Below, one piece after another: positions 9,158-41,263 of a stretch of 64,000 nucleotides of DNA. The stretch lies in NCBI GenBank assembly GCA_963753755.1, contig CAVWDM010000005.1, forward strand, positions 138,559 through 202,558, read 5' to 3'. Every line of letters begins with the position of its first letter. Position 1 is the stretch's first letter. The notes under the pieces were generated by a model, which was not told the DNA's origin, searched no databases, and worked only from the letters and a program-made list of their open reading frames with translations. This DNA is from an uncultured Gammaproteobacteria bacterium (GTDB taxonomy: Bacteria; Pseudomonadota; Gammaproteobacteria; UBA9214). The translations under genes and the position numbers were made by a program.

Positions 9158-11902
9158 TCAGGCCTTGTAGACCTTGATGGCGGCCTTCTTGAAGTCGGTC
9201 TCCTTCGACATCGGGCAGGTCACATCAAGGCACAGTTTGTTGACAAACACGGCCTCGTCAAAGAACGGTACGAAGGTATAGCCCTTCGCTGGCCGGTTGC
9301 GTCCCTGGGTCTCCACCACGGCCTTGACCTTGCCGCGGCGTGATTCCAGCCAGGCGATATCATTGCGCTGCAGGCCACGTTTTTTGGCGTCGTCCGGGTG
9401 CATGAAGATCACGGCCGTCGGCACGGCACGGTGCAACTCTGGTACCCGGCGGGTCATGGTGCCGGTGTGCCAGTGTTCCAGCACGCGGCCGGTGTTCAGC
9501 CACAGGTCGTAATTGCTGTCCGGTTGCTCCGGTGGCGCCGCATAGGGACGGAAGAAGATCTTTGCCTTGCTGGCCAGGCTGGTCTTCTCCTGGTTGGTGA
9601 CCTTGTCCAGGTCGCCACTCGGCAAGGCCTTGAGCGCCTTGCCGTAGAAGTCGAAGCCGCTGCCTTTCGCGCAATAGGGGTCATACTCTTCGTTGAAGCG
9701 CCACTGGGTTTCCTTGCCGTCGACGACCGGCCATTTCAGACCGCGCACATCGTCACCGTAGTAGACATCGAATGCCGCCAGGTCATGGGCATGTCCGACG
9801 CCAAACTGGCGGTATTCGTCGAACAGTGCCTTTTCCGGAAACCAGCCATCGCCGAGTTTCTCGGCCACGTGGTTGTCGTGTCCCTTGGCCACCGATTCAT
9901 CGGGCCACTTGACCTTGCGGTTGTCCGCGTTGGCGAACAGTACCTCGTAGAGGGTGTCATCGGGTGAGTAACCCATCTTCTGCGCCTCGGCCAGCACGCT
10001 GGGCAGCTTGCCATTATCGAAACCCTCGGCCTCGAGCCCCGGCACATTCTGCTCGCCCCAGACCTCCTTGAGCGTGAAGCGCTTGGAAAACTCCAGGCCC
10101 TGCCAGACATCACCCATGGCCTCGCCGGGCGGTGCCACCTGCTGCCGCCAGGCCTGGGTACGTCGTTCTGCATTGCCGTACAGGCCCCACTTCTCAAAGA
10201 TCATGGCGGTTGGCAGTATCAGGTCCGCCACCTTCGCCGAGACGGTGGGATAGGGATCGGACACCACAATGAAATTATCCATGTCGCGGGCTGCCTTGAT
10301 CCAGTGGTTGGCATTTGCGGTTGCCTGGAAGGGGTTGTTGACCTGTACCCAGGCCCACTTGATCTGACCGTCCTCGAGGTCGCGCATGATCTTGGTAATG
10401 TGGCTGCCGACCTTGGGATTGAGGGTGCTGGGCGGCAGTTTCCAGAGCTTCTCGCTGAATGCCCGGTGTGCCGGGATGGTGACCACGAGGTCAGCCGGCA
10501 GTCGATGGGCGAAGGTACCCACCTCACGTGCGGTACCGCAGGCGGAGGGCTGGCCGGTGAGCGAGAAGGCACCGTTGCCCGGCATGCACTGCTTGCCGAG
10601 CAGCAGGTGTATCGCATAGTTCTGCTCGTTGACCCAGCTGCCGCGGTAGTGCTGGTTGAAACCCATGGTCCAGAAGCTGACCACCTTGCGGTTCGGATCG
10701 ACATACAGCTCGGCCAGTTGCTTGAGTTTGCCCTTGTAGGTCTCCGGATCCTCGTCCGGATCACCCTTCGACAGTTGTGCCACGAAGTCCAGAGTGTAGG
10801 GCTCCACGCCCTTCTTGAAGTCCTCGTAGCTGATCATCCAGTGTGCAACCGGTTTCCTGGTGTTGTTCTGTTCCACCACTTCGCCCGCCTTTCTGCGCTG
10901 GCCGATGGCCTCATCCTTGTCGAGCGTCACCCTGAGCTCCTTGACCTGGATATCCTTCTCGGCCTCGAAACAGTACTTGTCTGTCGGGCGCATGCCGTAA
11001 CCGATATCATAGGGGCCGGTAGCAAACACGCAATGCTTGTTGACGAAGTCCTGGTTGACGGCATCGCGCTTGATGATCTCGCGCAGCAGGTAGTTCTGGA
11101 TGGCGAGGTCAGTACCCGGTTTGAAGATGATCTCGGTATCGGCGATGTCGGAGGTCTGGTTGCTCATGGTGGTCAGGTTGATGAGCTTGACGTTGTCATC
11201 CGTCAGCCGTCTATCGGAGACGCGTGCCCACAGGATCGGGTGACACTCGGCCATGTTGGCGCCCCAGGTGACAACGGTATCGGTGTGCTCGATGTCGTCG
11301 TAGTTACCGGCCGGTTCGTCGATGCCGAAGGTCTGGATGAAGCCCACCACGGCCGAGGCCATGCAGTGGCGTGCGTTGGGATCGATGTTGTTGCTGCGGA
11401 AACCGGCCTTCATCAGCTTCGCCGAGACATAGCCTTCCGGGATGGTGTACTGGCCGGAGCCGAAGATGGCGATGCCGTGTGGCCCCATTTCCCGGTAGGT
11501 CTTCTTGAACTGTTTTTCCATTTCGTCGAAGGCGCGTTCCCAGCTCACCGCCTGGAACTTGCCCTGCTTGTCGAACTTGCCGTCCGTCATGCGCATCAGT
11601 GGCTGGGTGAGACGGTCCTTGCCGTAGATGATCTTGCCGTTGAAGTAGCCCTTGATGCAGTTCAGCCCCCTGTTCACCGGTGCATCCGGGTCACCCTTGG
11701 TGGCGACGATGCGGCCGTCGCGGGTACCGACCATAATGCCGCAGCCGGTACCACAGAAGCGGCAGACGCCCTTGTCCCACTGTACTCCGGCCTCGGCCTC
11801 TTTAGATTTCGCCAGTGCGGCGGCGGGAATGGTGATGCCGGCGGCAGTGGCGGTGGCCGCCGCGGCACTGGTCTTGAGAAATTCTCTGCGTGTGACGTCC
11901 AT
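9158..11902 (-). CDS. napA: periplasmic nitrate reductase catalytic subunit NapA (Mo-bisMGD)
   Basis: 914 aa; twin-arginine signal ([22 protein letters not shown]); N-terminal CxxCxxxC...C FeS motif (CRFCGTGCG); Nap-type molybdopterin motifs ([15 protein letters not shown]). Confidence 0.9.
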
Positions 11903-21685: not shown

Positions 21686-23116
21686 ATGAATCCAATGGAT
21701 AAGAAAAAGTGGTTATGGGGCCTCGGTTTTCTCTGTCTCGTATTTCAGTCGGTGGCCATGGCTGCCCTCAGCAACCAGACACTTCCGATCAAGGAACTAT
21801 CGGAGGAAAGCAAGGAATGTATGAGCTGTCATCAGAAGTACAATCCCGGCATCACGCAGGAGTGGGGCAGGAGCAAGCACTATGGTGCCAACGTCGGCTG
21901 CTACGAATGTCACGCCGCTGAAAAAGGTGATGTGGATGCCTACATACATGATGACAAAAAGGTCAAGAAATCGATTTCCATCCTGGTGACACCAAAGGAC
22001 TGCGGCGTCTGCCACGAAAAGGCTGCGAAGGAAATGACCAGTTCCCGTCATGCCAAGGCTGGACATATCCTGGATTCACTGGATAACCTCCTCGCTGAAG
22101 TCGTCGAGGGTAATAACGCCATGATCACCCCCGGATTCCCGGGTGGCAACTCGGCCGCCGCGGTCAATGGCTGCTGGCAATGTCATGGTTCAAAGGTCAA
22201 GGTGCTGGAAGACGGTCAGCTGGATCCGGCCACCTACCCAAATACCGGTATCGGACGTATCAACCCGGACGGGTCTGAAGGCTCATGCTCGGCCTGCCAC
22301 AGTCGCCATCAATTCTCCACTGCACTGGCGCGCGAACCCGATAACTGCGGCAAGTGTCACCTCGGTCCTGATCATCCGCAGAAGGAGATCTACGAGGAAT
22401 CCAAGCACGGAATTGCCTTCAAGGCTTACAGGGACGAGATGAACCTGGACAGTTCCAAGTGGGTCGTCGGCGTGGATTACACGGCCGCACCTACCTGTGC
22501 GACCTGCCACATGGGCGCCACCAGGAAACAGCCGTCCAGCCACAATGTCGGTGATCGCATCAGCTGGACGAACCGTCCGCCGATATCGGTACGCCCCGAG
22601 GTGATGGATGCCAAGATGGGCCTGGAAAGTGCCAACCTCAAATGGGACACGCGTCGGGCAAACATGAAGGACGTGTGTAATGCGTGTCACAGCGAGGATC
22701 ATACGGAGGACTTCTACGTCCAGTACGATGCGCTGATCGAACTCTACAACGAGAAATTCGCCAAGCCCGGCAAGGCACTCATGGAGACAGCCAAGCCTCT
22801 GCTGAAACCGGCCAAGTTCAGCAACAAGGTTGACTGGACCTGGTTCGAACTCTGGCATCACGAGGGTCGCCGTGCGCGCATGGCTGCTTCCATGCAGGCA
22901 CCGGATTACACCCACTGGCATGGTACCTATGACCTGGCCAAGCACTTCTATACCAAGATGGTTCCGGAGCTGGAGGACCTGGTCAACGAGAACCTTGATT
23001 CCAAGGATCCAGTTAAGGCCAAGGCGGCCAAGGATCTGCAGGCCCAGATGATCGAGCTCTTTAACACCGATAACCACAAGTGGTATATCGGCAAGCGGGA
23101 CAAGGCAAAGAAATAG
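21686..23116 (+). CDS. octahaem c-type cytochrome, HAO/Otr (hydroxylamine oxidoreductase / octahaem tetrathionate reductase) family
   Basis: Signal peptide and eight CxxCH motifs (CMSCH, CYECH, CGVCH, CWQCH, CSACH, CGKCH, CATCH, CNACH) in 476 aa. Confidence 0.7.
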   Translation: MNPMDKKKWLWGLGFLCLVFQSVAMAALSNQTLPIKELSEESKECMSCHQKYNPGITQEWGRSKHYGANVGCYECHAAEKGDVDAYIHDDKKVKKSISILVTPKDCGVCHEKAAKEMTSSRHAKAGHILDSLDNLLAEVVEGNNAMITPGFPGGNSAAAVNGCWQCHGSKVKVLEDGQLDPATYPNTGIGRINPDGSEGSCSACHSRHQFSTALAREPDNCGKCHLGPDHPQKEIYEESKHGIAFKAYRDEMNLDSSKWVVGVDYTAAPTCATCHMGATRKQPSSHNVGDRISWTNRPPISVRPEVMDAKMGLESANLKWDTRRANMKDVCNACHSEDHTEDFYVQYDALIELYNEKFAKPGKALMETAKPLLKPAKFSNKVDWTWFELWHHEGRRARMAASMQAPDYTHWHGTYDLAKHFYTKMVPELEDLVNENLDSKDPVKAKAAKDLQAQMIELFNTDNHKWYIGKRDKAKK

Positions 23117-23283: not shown

Positions 23284-23832
23284 ATGATTCAAGAGAGGCA
23301 CAGGTTGCTGATGAATAAATTCCTGTACGTTGTATTGATGTGTTGTCTGATTGTCGCCCCGGCCGGAGCGGCGGATGTCGAGAGCCTGGTCGAGTCGGGT
23401 AATCAATACTGGTCTGAAGGCAAGCTGGAGCTGGCGGAGTCGACCTTCAGGGAAGCGATCAAGAGTGATCCCGATGCCGCATTGCCACATGCGCGTCTTG
23501 CCGGGCTGCTGCTGAGTCAGCACCGCAACGAGGAGGCGCGCGCTGAATACCAGAATGCCATCATGAACGACCCGGAAGATCCCAACCTGTTTCTGGCACT
23601 GGCCATCGTCTACCTGCATGAAAAAGCCTACAGCAATGCCCAGGCCATGGTTGATATGGTCCTTGAACTTGAACCGGACAGTGAAAATGCATTAAAGCTG
23701 CAGCAATATGTTACCTCAAGGATGGACACGCTGGATGCCACTGCAGGCGACGGTGCTGATGTTCCGGTTGCCATACCGCAGGACGCGATTCACGGCAGCG
23801 CAGGTGATAATGCAATGGAAGGCGCGCACTGA
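23284..23832 (+). CDS. secreted TPR-repeat protein
   Basis: Signal peptide (MNKFLYVVLMCCLIVAPAGAAD) and tetratricopeptide-like repeats. Confidence 0.55.
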   Translation: MIQERHRLLMNKFLYVVLMCCLIVAPAGAADVESLVESGNQYWSEGKLELAESTFREAIKSDPDAALPHARLAGLLLSQHRNEEARAEYQNAIMNDPEDPNLFLALAIVYLHEKAYSNAQAMVDMVLELEPDSENALKLQQYVTSRMDTLDATAGDGADVPVAIPQDAIHGSAGDNAMEGAH

Positions 23833-24316: not shown

Positions 24317-26158
24317 TCAGTGGCAATCCGGTAATACACCCACCTGCGGCATGTTGGCGAGGCCGGTCTCGCGGGCATGTTCTTCAAAACCCCTGTTACG
24401 CCAGAAAAAGGCACCGGGCAGGGTGGTTGGAATGACCAGGGCGTAAAACAGGGCGCGGCCAATCAGTGCGCTGCCGACAATACTGATTGCAGTGACTAGC
24501 CACATGAACAGCGCGGTGTTGCCGTCGGGGTTTAGCAGGCTGATTAGCCCCAGCATCAGCATGGACAGTCCAATACCGGTGTTGCGCAGCAGGTAGGTGT
24601 TTCCGAATTTCGTTCTTTGATCATAGTGCGAGGCCGCGCCTTCACCGCCACCACACCGCAGGTCGCGCGCATGGTAGTACAAACCAACGGCTTCCAGCGC
24701 CAGGCCGCACAGCATAAGCCCGGCCAACCCATGCACGGTGCTTGACCAGGGCAGACCCTGCAACAGTTGAGCGGCCATGTATACCAGCACCACCAGCAGT
24801 GGCCCCAGTGCCAGCATGCTGCCATAGAATGAGGTCAGTACCTGCCAGTGGTTCCAGTAGGGCCGGGCGGGTATGCGGTAGATGCTGTGCATGAAATACA
24901 GTGCCGCGATCCCCGCGATGACCGCACCCCAGCCGCATAGCTGTGCCAGCGCGTTGCTCAACCCGGCTGGCAGCCATGTAAACAGCATGGGCAGGCCGCT
25001 TAACAGCGTATAGGCACCGAGGAAGTTGTAGAACACGGCGATGCCGGCGACCTCGCGGCTCACCGGTGAATGACGCAGATTATTAAATGCACGGTAGAAA
25101 CGATGCGGGCGACCCAGGTGCAGGGTCGACATCACCAGTGCCAGTGTCTGTATGCTGATTAATCCAAACAGCAATAACGGCCGGGCGACCGGGTGGTTGG
25201 CCATGCTCAGCATTTCAACGCCCACTAGTGGGCCGATAAACAGAGTAATAAAGGCACCAATGACCGCCTGTGAAACCAGTGTGAAGATCACCAGCGGGTC
25301 TTCGCGGGTACGCAGTTTTATCAGGTTCCATGCACGGCCGGCTCCTGATTCGTCGACCTTGGGTTTGTAGGCGCCGCCCGGTCGCTGTTCGTCACGTTCG
25401 TAGCGCAGGGGCATGCTGTCGGTGCGTTTCATTTCACGAGGCAGACTGCGGGTTTGCTGAAAACGGATATTCGGATGGGTGATCTCCGGCGTTGGAAACC
25501 CCGGTATCTGTGTTTCCAGTTGATCGCGGTTCTCCGGCGTGGTCTCGATGATGCCGAAGTCCAGTGCACCGGCGAGGCAGGCCGATGCGCAGGCCGGTTT
25601 CAGGCCGACCTCGAGCCGGTCAACGCACATGTTGCACTTCGACACGTGACCGGCGGCGCTGTCCAGTTGTGGTGCATTGTAGGGGCACACCCAGGTGCAG
25701 TAGCCGCAACCGAAACAGATATCCGGATCCTGCAGTACGGCGCCGTACTCGGCGAACTTGGTGTAGGCCCGTGTCGGGCAGCCCTTCAGGCACACCGGGT
25801 CGTCGCAATGGTTGCAGGCCATGGAGATATTCATGCGCTGGTAAGCGGGGTAGGAACCCCCTTCCACGTAGCCGACGGCACGGAAGGCAATATGCGCCGG
25901 CAGGTCGTTCTTCTCGGAACAGGCCGCCTCGCAGGCATGGCAGGCAATGCAGTTGTCGGCATTGAAATAAAAACCGTGCTGCTTGTAGCGGTTCGGGTTG
26001 TCCGACACGCTACTGTCGCCGTTGATGTTCAGTGACTGGCCGCGTAGCGGGTCACCTGGCGGTACGGTTTCGGTGGATCTGCCGTAGCGATTGGTCTGCG
26101 GTGCTTCCACGTCAGGCACAAAGGCGTAGGCGGGTTCCTTGGGACGTGCTTCAAACAT
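24317..26158 (-). CDS. fusion of a DmsB-like 4x[4Fe-4S] ferredoxin subunit with a DmsC/NrfD-like integral membrane anchor
   Basis: N-terminal half has four ferredoxin Cys clusters (CIACHACEAAC, CNHCDDPVCLKGCP, CFGCGYCTWVCP, CNMCVDR...CASAC). C-terminal half has ~8 TM helices typical of DMSO-reductase anchor subunits. It lies directly downstream of the molybdoenzyme gene. Confidence 0.7.
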   Translation of the reverse strand: MFEARPKEPAYAFVPDVEAPQTNRYGRSTETVPPGDPLRGQSLNINGDSSVSDNPNRYKQHGFYFNADNCIACHACEAACSEKNDLPAHIAFRAVGYVEGGSYPAYQRMNISMACNHCDDPVCLKGCPTRAYTKFAEYGAVLQDPDICFGCGYCTWVCPYNAPQLDSAAGHVSKCNMCVDRLEVGLKPACASACLAGALDFGIIETTPENRDQLETQIPGFPTPEITHPNIRFQQTRSLPREMKRTDSMPLRYERDEQRPGGAYKPKVDESGAGRAWNLIKLRTREDPLVIFTLVSQAVIGAFITLFIGPLVGVEMLSMANHPVARPLLLFGLISIQTLALVMSTLHLGRPHRFYRAFNNLRHSPVSREVAGIAVFYNFLGAYTLLSGLPMLFTWLPAGLSNALAQLCGWGAVIAGIAALYFMHSIYRIPARPYWNHWQVLTSFYGSMLALGPLLVVLVYMAAQLLQGLPWSSTVHGLAGLMLCGLALEAVGLYYHARDLRCGGGEGAASHYDQRTKFGNTYLLRNTGIGLSMLMLGLISLLNPDGNTALFMWLVTAISIVGSALIGRALFYALVIPTTLPGAFFWRNRGFEEHARETGLANMPQVGVLPDCH

Positions 26159-28561: not shown

Positions 28562-28891
28562 TTATGCAGCAGCCTCGTTGCTCGACAGGGCCAGGAATAC
28601 CCGGCCGTTCTCGACGCGGGTGGCGTAGGTGTTGGTGCATCCCTCGTCCGGGCCAAGTGCCTCGCCACTGGCGAGATCGATCTTCCAGTTATGCAGCGGG
28701 CAGGTCACGGAGGTGCCGTGCACGATGCCCTGCGACAGCGGGCCCTTCTGATGCGGGCATTCATCCTTGATGGCGAATACCTCGTCGCCAGAAGTGCGAA
28801 ACAGGGCAATGTTGACAGTGTCTGTTTTCAGTACCCGTGCACCCAGCCTCGGGATGTCCTCCAGTTTTGCAATTTCAGTCCAGTCGTTCAT
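28562..28891 (-). CDS. nirD: nitrite reductase small subunit NirD (Rieske-type)
   Basis: 109 aa with the Rieske motif CPH...CPLH (ECPHQKG...CPLHNW). Confidence 0.85.
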   Translation of the reverse strand: MNDWTEIAKLEDIPRLGARVLKTDTVNIALFRTSGDEVFAIKDECPHQKGPLSQGIVHGTSVTCPLHNWKIDLASGEALGPDEGCTNTYATRVENGRVFLALSSNEAAA

Positions 28892-31592: not shown

Positions 31593-31796
31593 GGGGTTGA
31601 TGCACCTGCTTACTTAAGTGATGCTGTTCCTCTAGCAAGGTTTGTACCAGCAGGGCAGGAGATCAGGGTGCATGTTATTAACTCGCTGATTTAGATAGTC
31701 AGTTTTGGTGCGCTTCTGCCGGGCTCCAGGACGGCGACTGCACAGGTCCGATGATGTTGTGCACTAGGATGGCGCAGCGGTACGCAGGTCGCACCT

Positions 31797-31816
31797 TATA
31801 TAACCCTATATAACCC
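31797..31816. repeat. perfect tandem duplication TATATAACCC x2 in the nirB-nasT divergent intergenic region
   Basis: Two adjacent 10-bp copies in a region that is otherwise >60% GC. Confidence 0.6.
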
Positions 31817-32016: not shown

Positions 32017-32634
32017 ATGAAAATTGACTTGTTTTTTTGCAGATCAAATCATATGGGGTCGCTGGTGAACTTGCTGGTCGTTGCGGAACAAGCGGGACAA
32101 AGTGCTCCCTATATCAAGGCGGCCAGTAAGGCCGGCTGGCACATCGCGTCTGAGCTGAGCTATGACCGTTTGCCGGTGGCGTTGACAGATATCCAGGTGG
32201 ATGCCGCCGTGTTGATCGCACAGTGTATCGACGACAACGTTCTCAAGGCTGTGCGCCTGTTTAACAGCCGCTGGCCCTTGCCGGTGGTGTTGTACACCGA
32301 CGATTCACATCAGCGTTCTATTCGTGCAGCGGTAATGGCCGGTGTTTCCGTATATGCCGTTGATTGTCAGAACGTCAATCGCATTGCCGCGCTACTCGAT
32401 GTAGCGATGGTTCGTTTTAGTGAATCGCAGCAACTGAAAAAGGCTTTGCACAAGGCCAAAACTTCACTGACAGAGCGCAATACCGTGGAGAAGGCCAAGG
32501 GGATCATCATGCGTCAGCGCCAGCTCAACGAGGATGCCGCCTACAGGTTGTTGCGCAAGCTCGCCATGGATCGTAACCGGCGTATCGGCGAAGTGGCCGG
32601 AGAAGTCATTGCCGCTGCCGAGGTGTTGATCTGA
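32017..32634 (+). CDS. nasT: ANTAR-domain response regulator NasT (nitrate-responsive antiterminator)
   Basis: REC-like N-terminus and C-terminal ANTAR motif (EKAKGIIMRQRQLNEDAAYRLLRKLAMDRNRRIGEVA). Divergent from nirB. Confidence 0.8.
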   Translation: MKIDLFFCRSNHMGSLVNLLVVAEQAGQSAPYIKAASKAGWHIASELSYDRLPVALTDIQVDAAVLIAQCIDDNVLKAVRLFNSRWPLPVVLYTDDSHQRSIRAAVMAGVSVYAVDCQNVNRIAALLDVAMVRFSESQQLKKALHKAKTSLTERNTVEKAKGIIMRQRQLNEDAAYRLLRKLAMDRNRRIGEVAGEVIAAAEVLI

Positions 32635-32869
32635 ACAAACGGCCTGTCGCACGCACTGTCACGGTGCAACAGATGCATGCATCCGGTGAACATGGCTGAC
32701 GGTCAATGCTGATGACGGGGTGTAAGTCACTGTATTTCTCTCAGCGACTGTATTGGCACGGTTAATGCTATACACATTGTAGAATTAAACGGCAGCAGGC
32801 CAGTGACGGTGTGCTGCAAATCGCCGGTAATGTTGCCGGCAGCGAACAAAGGCGTTCTCCCTGACCGGT

Positions 32870-32905
32870 CATCAGACCCGTCGGGGTGAGCGTTTTTTTT
32901 TGGGT
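32870..32905 (+). promoter_or_regulatory. GC-rich stem followed by a T9 tract immediately 5' of the downstream operon; terminator-like leader element, a candidate for NasT (ANTAR) antitermination
   Basis: ...GACCCGTCGGGGTGAGCG-TTTTTTTTT at 32875-32901, only ~10 nt upstream of the ATG at 32912. Intrinsic-terminator architecture downstream of an ANTAR regulator gene. Confidence 0.4.
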
Positions 32906-32911
32906 TAAATC

Positions 32912-34882
32912 ATGAGCCAGGCAGACAACATTGCAGTTGCAGAACGTCACTACGCGGCGGAATGGCAGCAACCACCGACAGTGATCGTCGGGGTCGGGCC
33001 GGTCGGGCAGCGACTTGCGGCTGAATTAAGACAACACGATGCTGAACGTGAAATCGTTATGTTCGGTGATGAACCCTGGGCACCGTACGACCGGGTGCAA
33101 CTGTCATCCTGGCTTGCCGGAGAGAAGCGCGCTGGCGCTACGATGAGCGAAGATGCCCATCTACGGGTGCATCTCGGTATGTCGATAACCCGTATTGACA
33201 GGGCGAACCGCGAGGTCGTCGATGCGCGTGGCATTGCCTGTCCCTATGAAACCCTGATACTGGCAACCGGATCGCGTGCCAGTATCCCGCCGTTGCCGGG
33301 TATCCGTTTGCCGGGCGTGTTCACGTTCAGGAACCTGTCGGATGCCCAGGCACTCATGGCACGCAGTGTGCGCAGTCGCAGCGTGGTCGTCATTGGCGGT
33401 GGTCTGCTGGGTCTGGAAACAGCACGTGCACTGCGTCGCTTCCAGACCCATGTCACCATCATCGAGCAATCCGAACGCCTCATGTACCAGCAACTCGATG
33501 CTGACTGTGCGGCTCTGTTGCAGCAGCATGTCGAGGGACTCGGCATCGACGTCGTCACCCGTGCACGGGTCAAACGCATACTGGGAGAAACCCGCCTGCA
33601 GGGAGTGCTGTTGTCGGACAGCCGCTTTATAGAATGTGACACCGTGGTGATGGCCGTGGGCATTACGCCCAATATCCAGCTGGCGCGCGCTAGCGGGTTG
33701 CATATCGCACGGGGTGTGCTGGTGAATGACCACATGCAGACCAGTGATAGCCATATCTATGCTGTGGGTGAATGTGCCGAACACCGGCACACCGTTTACG
33801 GGCTGGTGGCCCCGGGTTTTGAGCAGGCGGCCGTGGCGGCACACGTCCTCTCCGGGCGCGCTGCGGAATACAGTGGCTCGATGACCGCGACACGCCTCAA
33901 GGTGCTCGGTTACCCGGTGATGAGTGTCGGTACCGCCGAGAGTGAATGGCCACGCCGTCCACTGGTCTATCGTGAGCGTGGAACGGGTACGTTACGCAAG
34001 GTGTTTCTCGATGGTAACCGCCTCGATGCGGCCATGGCGCTCGGTAGCTGGGACGAGTTCAGCCGGGTTCAGGAGGGCGTGCGTATGCGGCGGCGAATTC
34101 GGCCATGGCGCGCACTGCGTTTTCGTCTTACCGGCACACTCTGGTCGGCAGAAGGCGAGGGCGGCGTGGCTGGTTGGCCCGCTGCAGCGACGGTCTGCAA
34201 CTGTATGGGGGTGAGCCGTGGTGCCCTGACCCGGGCCGTGGATCAGGGCTGCGCCGATGTGGCCTGTCTTGCCAGTTACACCGGTGCCTCCAGCGTGTGC
34301 GGTTCCTGCAAGCCCTTGCTGGTGCAGTTGCTGGGCGCAACGGAAATAACGCCGGTTGTTGCAGCGCGCGCATTGACAGCCACAGCGTTTGTGGTCGCGG
34401 TTGCCACGCTGCTGTGGCTGTTGCCGCTTAGTCTCCCCTATGCGCACAGCGTGCAGTTGTCGCCACATATCGATGCGTTGTGGCGCAATGGCCTGTACAA
34501 GCAGATCAGCGGCTTCGGCCTGCTGGGATTGTCGCTGATATTGGCTCTGGTGTCGGTGCGCAAGCGCGTGCGTCGGCTGCGCTGGGGCAGCTTTGACGGC
34601 TGGCGCGTGCTGCATGTAATGGTCGGGCTGCTGACGGTCGCCGTGCTGGTGGCACATACCGGTTTCCGCCTCGGTGACAATCTCAATTTCTACCTGATGT
34701 GTGTGTATGCAGGCCTGATGCTGGCCGGTGCGGCCGCCAGTGCCGTGGTCGGCCTGCAGCATGTATTACCGCTAACACTGGCGCGGCGCAGCCGTGAACT
34801 GTCACTCTGGTCACATGTGCTGCTGCTCTGGCCGCTGCCGGCACTGCTCGGTTTTCATATCCTGAAAACCTACTGGTACTAG
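32912..34882 (+). CDS. NirB-like FAD/NAD(P)H pyridine-nucleotide-disulfide oxidoreductase fused to BFD-like [2Fe-2S] Cys motifs and a C-terminal 4-5 TM membrane domain
   Basis: N-terminal ~400 aa resemble the NirB/NasC reductase domain (GxGxxG motifs VIVGVGPVGQRLA and VVIGGGLLGLETA). Then CNCMGV...CGSCKP Cys motifs. The final ~200 aa are hydrophobic with conserved His residues. Confidence 0.6.
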   Translation: MSQADNIAVAERHYAAEWQQPPTVIVGVGPVGQRLAAELRQHDAEREIVMFGDEPWAPYDRVQLSSWLAGEKRAGATMSEDAHLRVHLGMSITRIDRANREVVDARGIACPYETLILATGSRASIPPLPGIRLPGVFTFRNLSDAQALMARSVRSRSVVVIGGGLLGLETARALRRFQTHVTIIEQSERLMYQQLDADCAALLQQHVEGLGIDVVTRARVKRILGETRLQGVLLSDSRFIECDTVVMAVGITPNIQLARASGLHIARGVLVNDHMQTSDSHIYAVGECAEHRHTVYGLVAPGFEQAAVAAHVLSGRAAEYSGSMTATRLKVLGYPVMSVGTAESEWPRRPLVYRERGTGTLRKVFLDGNRLDAAMALGSWDEFSRVQEGVRMRRRIRPWRALRFRLTGTLWSAEGEGGVAGWPAAATVCNCMGVSRGALTRAVDQGCADVACLASYTGASSVCGSCKPLLVQLLGATEITPVVAARALTATAFVVAVATLLWLLPLSLPYAHSVQLSPHIDALWRNGLYKQISGFGLLGLSLILALVSVRKRVRRLRWGSFDGWRVLHVMVGLLTVAVLVAHTGFRLGDNLNFYLMCVYAGLMLAGAAASAVVGLQHVLPLTLARRSRELSLWSHVLLLWPLPALLGFHILKTYWY

Positions 34883-34884
34883 GA

Positions 34885-36318
34885 ATGAGTGATGCAATAA
34901 CGCGGCGCATACTCTGGGGTGTCTGGTTGCTGGCAACGATCGGCCTGCTGGCATGGCTGACAAACAGCATGTTGAACGAGGCCGCGGACAAGCACATCTT
35001 CATGCCCGGTGAGTTGTCAGCGGGTCATTACCAGTTGCAGCTGGCGTGCGTGTCCTGTCACAGTGATCCTCTTGGTGGTGCTGACGTGCTGCAGCAGGCC
35101 TGTGTCGACTGTCATGGAGACGAGCGCAAGAAGCCGTTTGATTCACACCCGCCAGGCAAGTTCAGGGACCCGCGCAATGCAGACCGTCTGGAAAATATAG
35201 ACGCACTGCATTGCGTCACTTGTCATTCGGAGCATCGCCCGGAGATCACGCGTAAAAACGGCGTCACCCAGCCTCGCGACCTGTGTATTCATTGCCACGA
35301 GGATATTGCCGGGGACCGTCCCAGTCACAGCGGTATGGCGTTCACCCGTTGTGCGGACAGCGGGTGCCATAATTTTCACAACAACCGTTCACTGTACACG
35401 AAATTCCTTATCAAGCACCTGGACGAACCGGCATTGCTGCAAGAGCCACTGCTGCCGCAACGTGAATTCGCACAGCTGCTCGATCAGATCGTTGAGTACC
35501 CGCTGCAGCAGTACCCGCAGCAAGCGCTGTTACTGCAGGATGCGGATGGTGATTCCGAATTTGTGGACCTGCAGGGTGAGACGCCGCATGCGGACTGGGC
35601 GGCGACTGCCCATGCAAAGTCGGGAGTGAACTGCTCTGCCTGTCATCAACCAAAGGCTCAGGACGGCACGCAAGCTGCCTGGACTGATTATCCGGATGAA
35701 CAGGTTTGCTCGATTTGCCACAGCCTCGAGGTGGAACGCTTTGCCAGGGGCAAGCATGGCATGCGACTCGCCGCCGGGTTACCCGCGCTGAGTGTCAGTG
35801 ATGCACGTTTACCGATGCGCACGGAGGCAGCACACGAGTCACTGACCTGTCACAGCTGCCATTTGGCGCACCGATATGATGTCCGTCAGGCCGCCGCCGA
35901 GGCCTGTGTGGCTTGCCACGAGGATACGCACACGCTGGCGTACGAGGGTTCACCGCACCACATGCTGTGGCAACAGGAACTGAGCGGTGAGTTGCCTGCG
36001 GGCAGCGGTGTGTCCTGTGCAAGCTGCCACATGCCGCGTATTGAGTTTGACGTCAGCGACTGGCTGACACGCGTCATGGTTGACCACAACCAGAGTGCCA
36101 ACCTGTCACCGAATTCCAAGATGATACGCAGTGCCTGCCTGAACTGTCACGGGCTTGGGTTTTCCATCGATGCGCTGGCGGATCAACGCCTGATCGACAA
36201 CAACTTCCGCGGCAGCCCGTCATTGCACATCGATACCATGGATCTGGCTGCCGCGGAAAAGGAGCGCCGTGATAGTGAGGCGGGTGCGGATGATGACACG
36301 AGTATGTTCGGGTTCTGA
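34885..36318 (+). CDS. membrane-anchored multihaem c-type cytochrome (~11 haem-binding motifs)
   Basis: N-terminal TM helix. Ten CxxCH motifs (CVSCH, CVDCH, CVTCH, CIHCH, CSACH, CSICH, CHSCH, CVACH, CASCH, CLNCH) plus one CxxxxCH (CADSGCH). Only a 3-nt gap from the upstream gene. Confidence 0.7.
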   Translation: MSDAITRRILWGVWLLATIGLLAWLTNSMLNEAADKHIFMPGELSAGHYQLQLACVSCHSDPLGGADVLQQACVDCHGDERKKPFDSHPPGKFRDPRNADRLENIDALHCVTCHSEHRPEITRKNGVTQPRDLCIHCHEDIAGDRPSHSGMAFTRCADSGCHNFHNNRSLYTKFLIKHLDEPALLQEPLLPQREFAQLLDQIVEYPLQQYPQQALLLQDADGDSEFVDLQGETPHADWAATAHAKSGVNCSACHQPKAQDGTQAAWTDYPDEQVCSICHSLEVERFARGKHGMRLAAGLPALSVSDARLPMRTEAAHESLTCHSCHLAHRYDVRQAAAEACVACHEDTHTLAYEGSPHHMLWQQELSGELPAGSGVSCASCHMPRIEFDVSDWLTRVMVDHNQSANLSPNSKMIRSACLNCHGLGFSIDALADQRLIDNNFRGSPSLHIDTMDLAAAEKERRDSEAGADDDTSMFGF

Positions 36319-36361
36319 TTTTTTTATTCACACACTTCCATAGTGAAACAGGAGAGAGTCG

Positions 36362-36952
36362 ATGAGTATCAAGCTGAAAAGCAGTATCGGTGTAGCTGTC
36401 TGTCTGTGTATCGGTGTTGCCGTGGCGGCAGAACCGGGTTCTGAAACGGTGTCCGTAAAGGCGATGGCCGATGCGCTGCACATGGTCATGGATTCCGATC
36501 GCACCGTGTACACGAAGACTATCGTCAACCGGCTGGTGAAGAAAGACAAGGTCATCAAGGCCTCCGAGCACTTCGAGGATGACCAGGCGCTGGCCCTGCC
36601 GGCTCAGATGTTTCGCTTTGGCGCCGAGATGGTGTCTGAGCGTTCTGCTGATAATCCGGACGTGAACTTCAGCTATTCACTGCAATCGCTGTGGCCGGTG
36701 AACAAGCAGAATGCGCCGCAGACCGACGCCGAGAAGGAAGGGCTTGAGTTTGTCGCTGAAAACATTGGCAAAAACTACTACACCACCGAGACACTCGGAG
36801 ACCAGGAATACTTTACCGCTGTTTACGCCGATACCGGCGTCGCCCCGGTCTGTGTCTCATGTCATAACGCCCACCCGGATTCACCGCGAACGGATTTCAA
36901 GCTGGGTGATGTCATGGGCGGTGTGGTGATTCGCATCCCGGTTGAAGGCTAG
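36362..36952 (+). CDS. DUF3365 / Tll0287-like periplasmic c-type haem protein
   Basis: Signal peptide, PAS-like DUF3365 sequence, and a single C-terminal CxxCH (PVCVSCHNAHP). Confidence 0.55.
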   Translation: MSIKLKSSIGVAVCLCIGVAVAAEPGSETVSVKAMADALHMVMDSDRTVYTKTIVNRLVKKDKVIKASEHFEDDQALALPAQMFRFGAEMVSERSADNPDVNFSYSLQSLWPVNKQNAPQTDAEKEGLEFVAENIGKNYYTTETLGDQEYFTAVYADTGVAPVCVSCHNAHPDSPRTDFKLGDVMGGVVIRIPVEG

Positions 36953-36990
36953 AACGTCGGCATTACTTTTTAACAGACAGGAGAGCAGAT

Positions 36991-37407
36991 ATGCTTACAA
37001 CGGAACAAATCAAAATGGTGCAGTATTCCTGGGCGCAGGTGGTACCGATAGCTGACAAGGCAGCAGAGCTGTTTTACGGCAGGTTGTTTGAACTGGACCC
37101 CACGCTGAAACCCATGTTCAAGGGCGATATGGTCGAGCAGGGACAGAAGCTCATGCGCATGATCCACATTGCCGTCGATAATCTCGACAAGCTCGATGAC
37201 ATCGTACCGGCGGTACAGGACCTTGGCGTGAAGCACCTCGAGTACGGCGTGAAAAACTCCCACTATGACACGGTGGGCGCGGCCTTGCTGTGGACGCTGG
37301 GACAGGGACTCGGCGATGCGTTTACAACAGAGGTCAGGTCTGCCTGGACCGAAGTCTACGGACTGCTGGCCAGCACCATGAAGGATGCGGCCAGGGAAGC
37401 GGCCTGA
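36991..37407 (+). CDS. single-domain globin (bacterial haemoglobin-like)
   Basis: 138-aa globin fold sequence (…QYSWAQVVPIADKAAELFYGRLFELDPTLKPMFKG…VKHLEYGVKNSHYDTVGAALLWTL…). Confidence 0.7.
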   Translation: MLTTEQIKMVQYSWAQVVPIADKAAELFYGRLFELDPTLKPMFKGDMVEQGQKLMRMIHIAVDNLDKLDDIVPAVQDLGVKHLEYGVKNSHYDTVGAALLWTLGQGLGDAFTTEVRSAWTEVYGLLASTMKDAAREAA

Positions 37408-37596: not shown

Positions 37597-37882
37597 AAGG
37601 CCTGGTCTTCATTTACCGCGCCTGGCGTCATTCAGCACCTGAAGTTCCCGGGGAGCTTTCCGGTATCGCCCTGGACGGTGTTGCTAATGATGCACCGCGC
37701 TGGTTGCATGTTGCACCATATGGGTGCGAGTTGCCGTTGGCTTTTCCATTCTCTCATTTTGTCTCCAGCCAGATCAGTCACATACGTCGTTGGCACGGAA
37801 CCTGCTAATAACCTTGTAGACAGGCTGCAATGAGGCAGTGGAGTGTACAGATGGTGCACTCATTAATTAACTGGGGAAGGAG

Positions 37883-39292
37883 ATGTACATGAAGATCAAG
37901 CTGGACTGGACATCGCTGGCTAACGTGGGCCAGCGCATGCAGCGATCACTGTCGGCTGTTGCCGTTATGGGCCTTATGGTGGTTGCCCAGCACCCTGTCA
38001 TGGCAGGTGAGCTGGAAAAGGAAGATCTGAAATTCGGCTTTATCAAGCTGACTGATATGGCGCCCCTGGCGATTGCCTACGAGAAGGGGTATTTCGAGGA
38101 TGAGGGTCTGTACGTCATGCTGGAAGCGCAGGCCAACTGGAAGGTGCTGCTGGATCGTGTCATCGATGGTGAACTGGATGGTGCCCACATGCTGGCCGGT
38201 CAGCCACTGGGCGCAACCATCGGTTTTGGTACCAAGTCGGATATCATTACCGCGTTCAGCATGGACCTGAACGGTAACGGTATTACGGTCTCCAACAGTA
38301 TCTGGGAGCAGATGAAGGAGCACGTCCCGCACCAGGACGGTAAGCCCGTTCACCCGATCAAGGCGGATTACCTGAAGCCGGTGGTGGATAAGTATATCAA
38401 GGAAGGCAAGCCCTTCAAGATGGGCATGGTGTTCCCGGTCTCCACGCATAATTACGAGCTGCGCTACTGGCTGGCGGCTGGCGGTATCCACCCCGGCTTT
38501 TATGCCCCCGAAAGCGGTGATATCACCGGCCAGATCGATGCCGAGGCGTTGCTGTCCGTGACACCACCACCCCAGATGCCATCGACAATGGAGGCCGGCA
38601 CGATCTATGGCTACTGCGTCGGTGAGCCCTGGAACCAGCAGGCCGTATTCAAGGGCATTGGCGTACCGGTGATTACCGATTATGAGATCTGGAAGGACAA
38701 TCCCGAGAAGGTCTTCGGTGTTTCAAAAGAATGGGCTGAGGAGAATCCGAATACCCACAAGGCGGTACTGAAGGCGCTGATCCGGGCCGCGATGTGGCTG
38801 GATTCCGGTGGTCTGGAAAACCGCAAGGAAGCGGCGAAGATCATGTCGCGCCCGGAGTATGTTGGTGCTGACTACGAAGTGATTGCCAACAGCATGACCG
38901 GTACCTTCGAGTACGAAAAGGGCGACAAGCGCTCGGTACCTGATTTCAACGTGTTCTTCCGTTACAACGCCACCTATCCGTATTACTCGGATGCTGTCTG
39001 GTACCTGAGCCAGATGCGCCGCTGGGGACAGATCGGCGAGTACAAACCGGATAGCTGGTATATGGACACGGCGAAGCAGGTGTACCGCCCGGATCTGTAT
39101 GCCGAGGCCGCTGAGGAACTGATTGCCGAGGGCAAGGCGAAGGCGGAAGACTTTCCTGATTTTGCCAGCGAGACCGGGTTCCGTGCGCCGCAAACAGAGT
39201 TTATCGATGGCATCACCTACGATGGCACCAAGCCAAATGCCTACCTTGCACAGTTCCCGATAGGCCTGAAAGGCGAGGACAAGGTGAACTGA
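37883..39292 (+). CDS. nrtA: nitrate/nitrite ABC transporter periplasmic substrate-binding protein (NrtA/CmpA family)
   Basis: Signal peptide plus NrtA-family sequence, followed by permease and ATPase genes. Confidence 0.75.
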
Positions 39293-39370: not shown

Positions 39371-40337
39371 ATGTGTACGGAAACGATGAAGATATTTCAG
39401 CTGCAGGACTACCAGGAGGCCGCCAGGGCATTCTTATTGCCACTGATCGCCTTTCTCCTGTTTCTCGGCTTGTGGAGTTTTGCAGCATCACGCATCGAGA
39501 CGTCACTGGGGCAGTTGCCCGGACCTGCAGCGGTCTGGGAGCAGGCGAGTAATCTGGTCGCTGAACACCGTGCAGGAACGCGACAAGGCGCTTGCCTTTA
39601 TCGAGCGTCAGGAAGTGCGCAACCAGGCAAAGCTGGCGAAAGACCCGAGCGCAGAGGTACGCATCCGTCCCTATACGGGCAAACCGACCTTCTTTGACCA
39701 GATCGGCACCAGTCTGCTGACCGTGTTTACCGGCTTTCTGCTGGCAACGGTCATCGCGGTGCCGCTGGGTGTATTCACCGGCTTGAGCAGTAATGTTTAC
39801 CGGGCAATCAATCCGATTGTGCAGATCTTCAAGCCGGTGTCGCCGCTGGCGTGGCTGCCGATTGTCACCATTATCGTCAGTGCCGTTTATGTCACCGATG
39901 ACCCTATGTTTTCCAAATCCTACGTGACCTCCGCCATCACCGTCACCCTGTGTTGCCTGTGGCCGACCCTGATCAACACGGCGGTCGGTGTGTCATCCAT
40001 GGATCGGGACCTGGTGAATGTCGGCAAGGTGCTGCGCCTTGGCTGGTTCACCACGGTATGGAAGATTGCGTTGCCCTCGGCTGTTCCGATGATCTTTACC
40101 GGTCTGCGCCTGAGCCTGAGTATTGGCTGGATGGTGCTGATTGCAGCGGAGATGCTGGCACAAAATCCGGGGTTGGGTAAATTCGTCTGGGATGAATTCC
40201 AGAATGGCAGCTCCAATTCGCTGGGCCGCATTATGGTGGCCGTGTTTACCATCGGACTGATCGGATTCTTGCTGGATCGCATGATGCTGCTGCTGCAACG
40301 TCGTGTGTCCTGGGACAAGGACGCTGTATTGCGCTAG
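39371..40337 (+). pseudogene. nrtB: nitrate ABC transporter permease NrtB, N-terminus frameshifted
   Basis: The N-terminal TM segment is in ORF 39332..39697 and the rest in 39480..40337 in another frame; junction at about 39540-39560 (...GPAAVWEQA... then ...[19 protein letters not shown]...). The downstream part is a typical ABC permease (EAA-like region). Confidence 0.7.
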
Positions 40338-40381: not shown

Positions 40382-41263
40382 GTGATGAGTGATAAATATC
40401 TGAATATTGATCACGTGTCGATGGTGTTCGACACACCTGCCGGACCGTTCAAGGCGCTAGATAACGTCGACCTGGTGATCGCAAGGGGTGAGTATGTCTC
40501 GCTGATCGGTCATTCGGGTTGCGGCAAGTCGACGGTACTGAATGTCGTTGCTGGTTTGTTGCAGGCCACCACAGGCGGTGTGGTGCTCGATGGTACCGAG
40601 GTCGATGAACCCGGCCCCGAGCGAGCAGTTGTATTCCAGCACCATTCGCTGATGCCATGGCTGACGGCCTATGAAAATGTTGAACTGGCCGTTCAGCAGG
40701 TATTCAAGGGAAAAAAGAGCAAGCCCGAGATGCGCGAATGGATTGAATACAATCTGAAGCTGGTGCATATGGAACATGCCATGGATAAATTACCCGGTGA
40801 AATCTCCGGCGGCATGAAACAGCGTGTCGGCATTGCACGCGCACTCGCGATGCAACCCAAGGTGTTGTTGATGGATGAGCCGTTCGGTGCACTGGATGCG
40901 CTGACGCGTGCACACATGCAGGATTCACTGATGGAAATTCAGAACGAACTCGGCAATACCGTGATCATGATTACGCATGATGTTGATGAAGCGGTACTGT
41001 TGTCTGATCGAATTGTCATGATGACCAATGGTCCGGCAGCCACCATCGGGCAGATTCTTGACATCAAGCTGGAGCGACCGCGTAACCGCGTTGCCCTGGC
41101 GGATAGCGCCGAGTACAACCATTACAGGGCGGAAGTGCTGAAGTTCCTCTATGAACGCCAGCGCAACCCCGAGTCGGGAGATAGCAATAGCAGGAAGGAT
41201 AATGTGCAGGGAAGCGCGGAGGACAAACCGTTACAGGTGGTTGCCGGTATTGCCGCCGCCTGA
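40382..41263 (+). CDS. nrtD: nitrate/sulfonate/bicarbonate ABC transporter ATP-binding protein (NrtC/NrtD-like)
   Basis: Walker A GHSGCGKST, ABC signature LSGGMKQRVGIARAL, Walker B LLMDEPFGALD. Confidence 0.8.
   Translation: MMSDKYLNIDHVSMVFDTPAGPFKALDNVDLVIARGEYVSLIGHSGCGKSTVLNVVAGLLQATTGGVVLDGTEVDEPGPERAVVFQHHSLMPWLTAYENVELAVQQVFKGKKSKPEMREWIEYNLKLVHMEHAMDKLPGEISGGMKQRVGIARALAMQPKVLLMDEPFGALDALTRAHMQDSLMEIQNELGNTVIMITHDVDEAVLLSDRIVMMTNGPAATIGQILDIKLERPRNRVALADSAEYNHYRAEVLKFLYERQRNPESGDSNSRKDNVQGSAEDKPLQVVAGIAAA

Follow-up and report, generated by a model that had tools for sequence, protein, structure and literature searches.

A nitrate assimilation-associated operon encoding a membrane-tethered flavoprotein, an undecahaem cytochrome c, a Cache-haem protein and a globin: a candidate electron export system in an uncultured gammaproteobacterium

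Nitrate assimilation is usually viewed as a cytoplasmic process, its components being a transporter, NasA and NirBD. Protection against reactive nitrogen species may extend across the membrane, as in Campylobacter, where the periplasmic NrfA is paired with the globin Cgb in nitrosative-stress defence. A link between the two is found in Bradyrhizobium japonicum, whose narK-bjgb-flp-nasC genes are controlled by NasS-NasT and in which bjgb and flp mutants are both sensitive to nitric oxide (NO) donors; Flp has been described as a cytoplasmic oxidoreductase and proposed as the electron donor of NasC (PMC4724949). Here, we describe a four-gene operon located in a stretch of 64,000 nucleotides (nt) from an uncultured Gammaproteobacteria bacterium of the lineage UBA9214 (GenBank assembly GCA_963753755.1, contig CAVWDM010000005.1, positions 138,559 to 202,558 of the forward strand); this whole stretch is referred to as the window, and coordinates refer to its first position. 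The operon encodes a flavoprotein fused to a membrane module, a multihaem cytochrome c, a Cache-haem protein and a globin. We tentatively propose, with a confidence that falls somewhat short of even, that these products would perform NAD(P)H-driven electron export resembling that of NOX enzymes, together with reduction of the globin, for the disposal of NO and perhaps other N-oxides on both sides of the membrane.

All four genes are encoded on the plus strand. Gene 1 (32912-34882) specifies a membrane-tethered flavoprotein of 656 amino acids (aa), gene 2 (34885-36318) a membrane-anchored periplasmic undecahaem cytochrome c of 477 aa, gene 3 (36362-36952) a periplasmic Tll0287-like, or Cache-haem, monohaem c protein of 196 aa, and gene 4 (36991-37407) a cytoplasmic single-domain globin of 138 aa. 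An initial annotation of the window had recognized the close spacing of these genes, which stands, the gaps being 2, 43 and 38 nt (the first having been given as 3 nt). It had also described the products as a NirB-like NAD(P)H/flavin adenine dinucleotide (FAD) protein with BFD-type cysteines and a transmembrane (TM) module, a membrane-anchored cytochrome with about 11 haems, a DUF3365-like c-haem protein of the Tll0287 kind and a single-domain globin, all of which are borne out by the profile matches, motifs and models presented below for the individual proteins. Between positions 33651 and 38059, the operon region is matched without gaps, at 99.9-100% identity, in three independent short-read assemblies derived from other sequencing runs, and because these assemblies agree, the sequence is considered reliable.

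Homologues of the cytochrome number more than 2600 in the protein collection, their sole names being of the "cytochrome c3 family protein" kind, and a scan of one genome per species located relatives in 515 species genomes, most of them of Gammaproteobacteria and Betaproteobacteria. Carriers include Sedimenticolaceae, Thiogranum, Chromatiaceae, Thiohalocapsa, Thiothrix, Thiobacillus, Gallionellaceae and Methylococcales, in addition to Granulosicoccus, Porticoccaceae, Halioglobus, Immundisolibacteraceae and one metagenome-assembled genome of Nitrospirota. The comparison of loci covers the best 80, being the closest of the 515, and more distant relatives may differ. Where testable in this set, the fused flavoprotein gene lies directly 5′ of the cytochrome gene (72 of 72 loci), the Cache-haem gene lies 3′ of it (72 of 72) and the globin gene is present in 69 of 72, with constant order and strand. 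A NasT, NrtA/NrtABC or NirB homologue is encoded nearby in 34 of the 48 loci for which full 8-kb flanks are available, NasT itself in 29 of these 48, while the other recurrent neighbours, namely, NarK, a porin-like protein and a kinase/phosphatase, are all typical of nas clusters. The four genes are, thus, conserved together, as the initial annotation had demanded for its proposal to stand. In 38 of the 80 loci, a fifth gene, which is absent from the window, is inserted between the Cache-haem gene and the globin gene (for example, at 10084-10485 of locus L004); its product is a monohaem cytochrome of approximately 125 aa with a signal peptide and c5-type features (CxxCH ... MPxRGGN).

The closest relative in the genome collection (CAVYIJ010000005.1) is labelled "uncultured Halobacteria archaeon"; its locus has a gammaproteobacterial gene content and encodes proteins 65-87% identical to those of the window, and it looks like a mislabelled or contaminated bin.

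Domain assignment for the window proteins was based on Pfam and NCBIfam profiles with curated cut-offs. Gene 1 matches Pyr_redox_2 (9e-62), Rubredoxin_C and Fer2_BFD (1.4e-8), and its N-terminal 470 residues align with positions 2-469 of NirB, spanning the FAD, NAD(P)H and BFD-type [2Fe-2S] regions. The alignment to the NirB model TIGR02374 is confined to these positions of its 794 and reaches 390.5 bits, the cut-off being 578, and gene 1 is approximately 37-39% identical to the neighbouring NirB. The four cysteines expected to bind the [2Fe-2S] cluster (C429, C431, C463 and C466) are invariant among 72 full-length orthologues. The Pfam scan found no sirohaem-[4Fe-4S] domain (NIR_SIR or NIR_SIR_ferr) in the gene 1 product, and the membrane module stands where NirB has its sirohaem/[4Fe-4S] catalytic half. 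Since this entire catalytic half is missing, gene 1 cannot encode a NirB-type nitrite reductase; public pipelines name the family either "FAD-dependent oxidoreductase" or "nitrite reductase (NADH) large subunit", and the latter label, which is widely applied, is incorrect and would lead metagenome surveys to count too many nirB genes. The prospect that gene 1 might prove to be an ordinary NirB or NasC paralogue with no real membrane domain, raised in the initial annotation as grounds for discarding its proposal, is ruled out by the missing sirohaem half and by the constant presence of the membrane module.

An AlphaFold (AF2) model of gene 1, built from 41 homologues and having a predicted local distance difference test (pLDDT) score of 77, presents a ferredoxin reductase-like N-terminal part followed by five helices (residues 485-503, 527-549, 561-583, 591-614 and 621-655). 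Foldseek searches with this model returned matches of the ferredoxin-reductase type only, the best solved ones being toluene-dioxygenase, putidaredoxin and rubredoxin reductases, the search being dominated by the N-terminal domain. Four histidines of the membrane module, H568 and H582 of the third helix and H635 and H649 of the fifth (14 residues apart in each case), are invariant in the 72 orthologues, and these two His-x13-His pairs on parallel helices constitute a putative transmembrane di-haem-b signature. Loops rich in Lys and Arg, read from the sequence at residues 550-560 and 615-628, would fit a topology in which the N-terminus and these loops are cytoplasmic and the C-terminus is periplasmic. 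Matches of the module to Pfam are faint and under the cut-off (Ferric_reduct, E 0.53; DUF4405, E 0.066). When 1.84 billion cluster representatives were searched with a profile of the module, it was retrieved in 769 clusters and was always C-terminal, the listed full-length proteins being mostly of 640-700 aa; because of this constant position, the fusion of flavoprotein and membrane module is taken to define a family of its own.

Gene 2 harbours 10 CXXCH motifs and one CX4CH motif, and precisely this set is retained in 77 of 77 orthologues. Its N-terminus forms a hydrophobic TM helix after an Arg-Arg pair, which is the sole confident part of an AF2 model that is otherwise unusable (20-sequence alignment, pLDDT 42), and its Pfam matches are to cytochrome c3/c7 motifs. 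Outside the haem-binding motifs, 12 histidines are invariant among the orthologues, a number which makes bis-His ligation possible for each of the 11 haems; this pattern is suggestive of, though not proof for, an electron wire rather than an enzyme. Assignment to a well-characterized cytochrome family, which would have undercut the novelty suggested in the initial annotation, did not follow from any of the curated models, given that gene 2 scores below the cut-offs of the NrfA-related Cytochrom_C552 (20.1 versus 24.1 bits) and NF008339 (27 versus 595), the DmsE/MtrA-type TIGR03508 (46.6 versus 192.2) and the NrfH model TIGR03153 (16.6 versus 134.2).

The ligation pattern of gene 2 bears directly on an alternative in which the cytochrome is itself the catalyst, namely, an assimilatory reductase of nitrite or hydroxylamine that is located in the periplasm, is driven by NAD(P)H, is distantly related to NrfA and the octahaem enzymes and would form ammonium outside the cytoplasm, the globin being merely protective. 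A profile of gene 2 matches solved structures of NrfA (7e-6) and of the octahaem nitrite reductase TvNiR (9e-5) weakly but significantly over residues 225-428, NrfA-like signatures are recognizable (GVxCxxCHxP(K/R) and, between the final two haems, xDH), and the genomic context is strictly that of nitrate assimilation. Nevertheless, the gene 2 sequence contains no CXXCK motif, conservation within the family is lowest in the segment aligned to the NrfA active-site Gln/His region (residues 226-237), the 12 additional histidines could ligate all haems, and the curated NrfA, NrfH and DmsE models are missed by a wide margin. As several genomes also carry an intact NirBD beside the operon, a replacement enzyme appears unneeded, and we regard a catalytic role of this kind as unlikely.

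Gene 3 belongs to the Tll0287-like family PF11845 (70.1 bits against a cut-off of 24.1; E 3.6e-19). It possesses a signal peptide, for which some orthologues have a lipobox instead, and a CVSCH haem motif whose C164, C167 and H168 are invariant among orthologues. The Tll0287 family has recently been reclassified as haem-c Cache (sCache_heme) domains, and in the one pair of proteins tested, a member devoid of the axial cysteine bound NO tightly while a stand-alone Cys/His member did so weakly (preprint 10.64898/2026.02.01.703092). The mature gene 3 product and 12 aligned orthologues have no cysteine outside the CXXCH motif and thereby lack the axial cysteine that marks the Cys/His redox subgroup. 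Tll0287 and a Pseudomonas putida protein are stand-alone proteins like gene 3, but they possess the axial cysteine that gene 3 does not. Owing to the absence of this residue, the haem environment predicted for gene 3 resembles that of the NO-binding, signalling-type members of the family. Neither the single sequence nor a profile of gene 3 matched any PDB entry, including the Tll0287 structure 5B82. Gene 3 is also the most conserved product of the operon, with a median identity to the window protein of 69%, compared to 56% for the cytochrome and approximately 47% for the flavoprotein, which hints that the Cache-haem protein is functionally central and not accessory.

The gene 4 product contains a globin domain (2.2e-16) and has neither a signal peptide nor a reductase domain, its alignment to the Hmp model being limited to the globin part (positions 1-136 of 399). 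Among solved structures, those of the Methylacidiphilum globins HGbRL and HGbI (3WFW, 6e-32; 3S1I) are most closely related to it, followed by neuroglobin, Vitreoscilla haemoglobin (Vgb) and the globin domain of Hmp. Alignment to 3WFW and 3S1I places Tyr at B10, Gln at E7 and Lys at E10 (motifs LFY and EQGxK), and these motifs are kept in the listed orthologues. Judged by its predicted globin fold, Tyr-B10, Gln-E7 and the proximal His, gene 4 is a single-domain globin of the Hmp/Vgb/Cgb type, and the predicted Tyr-B10/Gln-E7 combination is as in NO-dioxygenase globins such as Hmp and Vgb.

The operon is preceded by a gene for a NasT-type ANTAR antiterminator (32017-32634, plus strand; ANTAR domain, 1.2e-18), which is the probable regulator, and is followed by genes for NrtA (37883-39292), a permease (NrtB; 39480-40337) and an ABC ATPase (40382-41263). 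The placement between nasT and nrt genes proposed in the initial annotation is, thus, correct, although the nrtABCD set named there is seen only in part, with a single ATPase gene. The 277-nt leader of the operon has a minimum free energy of -73.7 kcal/mol (z = -5.4), and none of 200 shuffled sequences folded as well. On the plus strand, it contains a hairpin P1 (GCCGGU-AAUGUU-GCCGGC; 32823..32840), a hairpin P2 (GAAC-AAAGGC-GUUC; 32844..32857) and an intrinsic terminator (32853..32901) consisting of a stem (32853-32870/32875-32892), the loop AUCA and U9 (32893-32901), which confirms the terminator-like GC stem and T9 tract previously noted 10 nt before the first ATG. Targets of ANTAR proteins are composed of two hexaloop hairpins with A1 and G4, the second of which overlaps a terminator stem (PMC8934654, PMC10783516). 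Both hexaloops of the operon leader carry A1 and G4, and P2 runs into the terminator: its 3′ arm (32854-32857) belongs to the 5′ side of the terminator stem, where it pairs with 32888-32891.

A hairpin GGAC-AAAGGC-GUCC and a terminator precede the orthologous operon in other genomes. Among 13 leaders, both sides of the P1 stem are changed in five of its six base pairs, and in the alignment of the whole ANTAR motif, 97.7% of cells pair and both-side changes occur in 6 of 10 pairs, these values being biased in that the leaders were picked by a hairpin scan. A covariance model (R1) scores the window leader at 42 bits (E 1.4e-8), the window sequence being part of its training set, and detects the motif 5′ of the flavoprotein gene in approximately 26 of the 80 loci, of which some 13 are outside the training set, as well as before nrtA in approximately 12 loci. 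Within the window, R1 identified no convincing second site, the nirB and nrtA leaders (the latter of 475 nt) being unmatched, and no Rfam family reached its gathering threshold. A loose dual-hexaloop candidate is present in the nirB leader (31772-31813, minus strand; loops AGGGUU and ACCGCU) and was not recovered by the covariance model.

Upstream of the hairpins lies a sigma-54-type -24/-12 promoter-like element (TGGCACGGTTAATGCT; 32754..32769, plus strand) conforming to the pattern TGGCAC-N6-TGCW, and a second match (TGGCACGGAACCTGCT; 37791..37806, plus strand) is situated approximately 80 nt before nrtA. These are the only two matches in the 64 kb, both being on the plus strand and in the leaders of the operon and nrtA; by count they are not significant (two or more were obtained in 27 of 100 shuffles), and it is their placement that counts. 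The combination of RpoN/NtrC promoters with NasST antitermination is a known scheme for nas operons (PMC10783516). Because the operon has an ANTAR leader with a terminator and shares a sigma-54-type match with nrtA, its membership in the nitrate-assimilation regulon, with predicted binding of NasT, is well supported, as is the ANTAR (NasT) antitermination control put forward initially, the dual hexaloop overlapping the terminator and the motif recurring in other genomes.

In the mechanism we propose, the operon would act as an accessory module of the nitrate-assimilation regulon, being transcribed from a probable sigma-54 promoter and released by NasT-mediated antitermination on nitrate or nitrite. 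Electrons from NAD(P)H would pass in the cytoplasm to the FAD and then to the fused [2Fe-2S] cluster of gene 1, from where they would either cross the membrane via the two b-haems or pass to the cytoplasmic globin. At the periplasmic face, the 11-haem cytochrome would accept them and deliver them to the Cache-haem protein and, where present, to the c5 cytochrome, while the same reductase would serve the globin, as proposed for Flp and Bjgb in Bradyrhizobium. The module may serve the disposal of NO, and perhaps of other reactive N-oxides, that the reduction of nitrate and nitrite yields as by-products, the globin acting in the cytoplasm and the Cache-haem/cytochrome arm in the periplasm. This purpose is suggested because of the Bjgb-Flp precedent, the NO-dioxygenase residues of the globin and the cysteine-less environment of the Cache-haem. 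Gene content, motifs, topology signals, co-conservation and the regulatory RNA rest on observation, whereas the binding of b-type haem, the way in which electrons flow, the interacting partners and the substrate are all inferred, the electron-export architecture being more secure than the substrate. An extended form of the proposal, which we consider somewhat unlikely, holds that the NirB-derived flavoprotein and its di-haem-b conduit, in driving the 11-haem cytochrome, represent an unrecognized class of transmembrane reductase and that the Cache-haem protein is a new periplasmic reductase or scavenger of N-oxides (NO, nitrite or hydroxylamine), which would give the nitrate assimilation of hundreds of sulfur- and iron-oxidizing species a periplasmic branch that has so far been missing.

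Several observations weigh against the proposed export and NO-disposal function. The predicted binding of b-haems by gene 1 derives solely from histidine spacing, and a profile of the membrane module matched none of the PDB sequences. Given the unusable model of gene 2, an open catalytic haem in that protein may exist. To export NAD(P)H-derived electrons is energetically wasteful, a surprising trait in chemolithoautotrophs. That the system acts on nitrite, hydroxylamine or NO is a prediction throughout, and we know of no single c-haem protein that functions as an NO reductase. The rule that a Cache-haem protein devoid of the axial cysteine binds NO is derived from one protein, and stand-alone members of the family have been assigned a redox role and not one in NO binding (preprint 10.64898/2026.02.01.703092). 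Finally, with respect to regulation, the ANTAR pair statistics are biased by the hairpin-based selection of leaders, and the motif is found in about a third of loci.

The bis-His pattern of gene 2, which suggests a pure wire, would also suit a redox valve or feeder, in which the operon encodes an NAD(P)H:cytochrome-c oxidoreductase. With nitrate available, such an enzyme would circumvent the quinones and supply the periplasmic cytochrome-c pool and, through it, a cbb3 oxidase, cNor, NirS or peroxidases, or in which the di-haem-b module exchanges electrons with quinones. Di-haem-b membrane modules often carry quinone sites, and the soluble c5-type monohaem cytochrome inserted in approximately half of the loci would be a suitable carrier for such a supply line. 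What this leaves unexplained is the near-universal and most highly conserved Cache-haem protein (median identity of 69%), the globin found in 69 of 72 loci and the assignment of control to NasT instead of an oxygen or redox regulator, and we consider a feeder function distinctly unlikely.

The reverse direction of flow is a very unlikely alternative. Periplasmic donors derived from sulfur or iron oxidation would here reduce the 11-haem cytochrome and, via the b-haems, the [2Fe-2S]/FAD centres, thereby feeding the globin, NasA or NirB or forming NAD(P)H and sparing chemolithoautotrophs reverse electron transport, a scheme in keeping with the mostly sulfur- or iron-oxidizing carriers (Sedimenticolaceae, Thiogranum, Chromatiaceae, Thiobacillus, Thiothrix and Gallionellaceae) and with the role of Bradyrhizobium Flp as a proposed NasC donor. 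Such a flow would, however, be opposed by the membrane potential and would have to climb in energy from c-haems to NAD(P)+, a deduction from established bioenergetics; heterotroph-type carriers (Halioglobus, Porticoccaceae and Immundisolibacteraceae) also exist, and the local nitrate reductase already has an FeS/DmsC-type partner of its own. Outward flow is favoured by both redox potential and membrane potential, while inward flow is disfavoured by both. It is highly improbable that the operon encodes a sensing device through which nitrate assimilation is tuned, with the Cache-haem protein signalling the NO, O2 or redox state of the periplasm and the globin that of the cytoplasm. Sensory roles are established for Cache-haem domains and for some globins, but none of the four proteins has a signalling output domain, sensing would be an expensive use of a wire with 11 haems and of an NAD(P)H reductase, and no kinase or GGDEF partner is present among the recurrent neighbours, bar a Ser/Thr kinase-like gene in 5 loci.

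The nirBD-nasA genes reported to flank the operon are present on the minus strand, though not all intact: nirD (28562-28891) is, whereas nirB (31592 to 29161) and the nasA-like molybdoenzyme gene (28481 to 26268), whose product is of the NasC/NarB type with approximately 700 aa, are each split over three reading frames. In an independent assembly of 99.5% identity (L084), the molybdoenzyme is encoded by a single intact gene of 728 aa, relative to which the window lacks one nucleotide at 28095 and has one extra within a T-run at 27277. Because the molybdoenzyme is intact in L084, the frameshifts of both genes are probably assembly errors and not marks of pseudogenes, the comparison having been made for the molybdoenzyme alone. 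The notion that the operon substitutes for decayed nirB and nasA genes was rejected on the same grounds and in view of the intact NirBD that related genomes keep beside the operon.

Directly 3′ of the nitrate reductase gene (24317-26158, minus strand), and likewise in L084, lies a gene for an unusual 613-aa fusion of a DmsB-like 4Fe-4S protein and a DmsC-like membrane anchor, which suggests a membrane-bound and possibly quinol-linked assimilatory nitrate reductase. Further upstream, an octahaem cytochrome of the HAO family is encoded (21686-23116, plus strand; 8 CXXCH motifs, PF13447, a match to a hydrazine-dehydrogenase model at 2e-23, and a signal or anchor sequence), followed by a TPR protein (23284-23832, plus strand); a "reverse HAO"-type enzyme acting on nitrite or hydroxylamine near the nas cluster is possible. 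The conclusions on the operon do not depend on these genes, which do show, however, that the nitrate cluster of this organism is uncommonly well stocked with redox proteins of the membrane and the periplasm.

The operon is present in at least 515 species-level genomes and is common among marine and sediment sulfur oxidizers, including relatives of animal symbionts, and it implies a conserved, haem-rich periplasmic redox branch that is linked with nitrate assimilation. Should the proposed function prove true, it would amount to a second, independently built form of NAD(P)H-driven electron export beside NOX and MsrQ, would provide a physiological role for stand-alone Cache-haem proteins and would explain how these bacteria cope with NO produced during nitrate assimilation. 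A description of the four-gene set was not found in literature searches, and the earlier statement that no characterized enzyme has this architecture holds to that extent; it needs amending in that Bradyrhizobium Bjgb and Flp offer a partial precedent.

Comparison with known systems places the individual parts of the operon nearest to different counterparts. The undecahaem cytochrome UetJ of Ca. Tenderia was considered as a relative of gene 2 and rejected, as it belongs to a porin-cytochrome cluster for extracellular electron uptake and shares no neighbours with the operon. Gene 2 is locally similar in sequence to NrfA and TvNiR around its last six haem motifs, but it differs from NrfA in the missing CXXCK motif, the unconserved active-site segment, the number of 11 haems and the membrane anchor, and its proposed electron source is an NAD(P)H-oxidizing flavoprotein, where NrfA depends on a quinol dehydrogenase (NrfH or NrfBCD). 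With the NrfA-Cgb pair of Campylobacter, the operon shares the combination of a periplasmic multihaem protein and a cytoplasmic single-domain globin.

The proposed electron path most resembles that of NOX and SpNOX and of the Fre-MsrQ-MsrP system, in which electrons pass from NAD(P)H via a flavin and two b-haems, held by pairs of histidines 13-14 residues apart on the third and fifth helices, to an outer acceptor (PMC5676040, PMC11031084, PMC12525009), and MsrQ, too, feeds a periplasmic enzyme. Gene 1 has two such histidine pairs on two TM helices, its haem binding being putative. The order of domains is, in contrast, reversed, the flavoprotein of gene 1 being N-terminal; this flavoprotein is of the glutathione-reductase/ferredoxin-reductase class with a [2Fe-2S] cluster and is not FNR-like; five helices are predicted instead of six, and the Ferric_reduct match is not significant. 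The acceptor proposed here is, moreover, a multihaem cytochrome c and not O2 or MsrP.

The pairing of globin and flavoprotein, which is the sole part of the gene set with a characterized precedent, is comparable to Bjgb-Flp, with which it was compared by description only: in both cases, a single-domain globin of the Hmp/Vgb type and an FAD/NAD(P)H flavoprotein are co-encoded in a NasT-controlled nitrate-assimilation cluster. The operon departs from this arrangement in that its flavoprotein is fused to a five-TM module with four histidines at 72 of 72 loci and in that the 11-haem cytochrome and the Cache-haem protein are absent from the Bradyrhizobium operon as described. The operon would combine two known kinds of system, the Flp-globin NO module and NOX-like electron export, and there is a real chance that it represents a new enzyme system.

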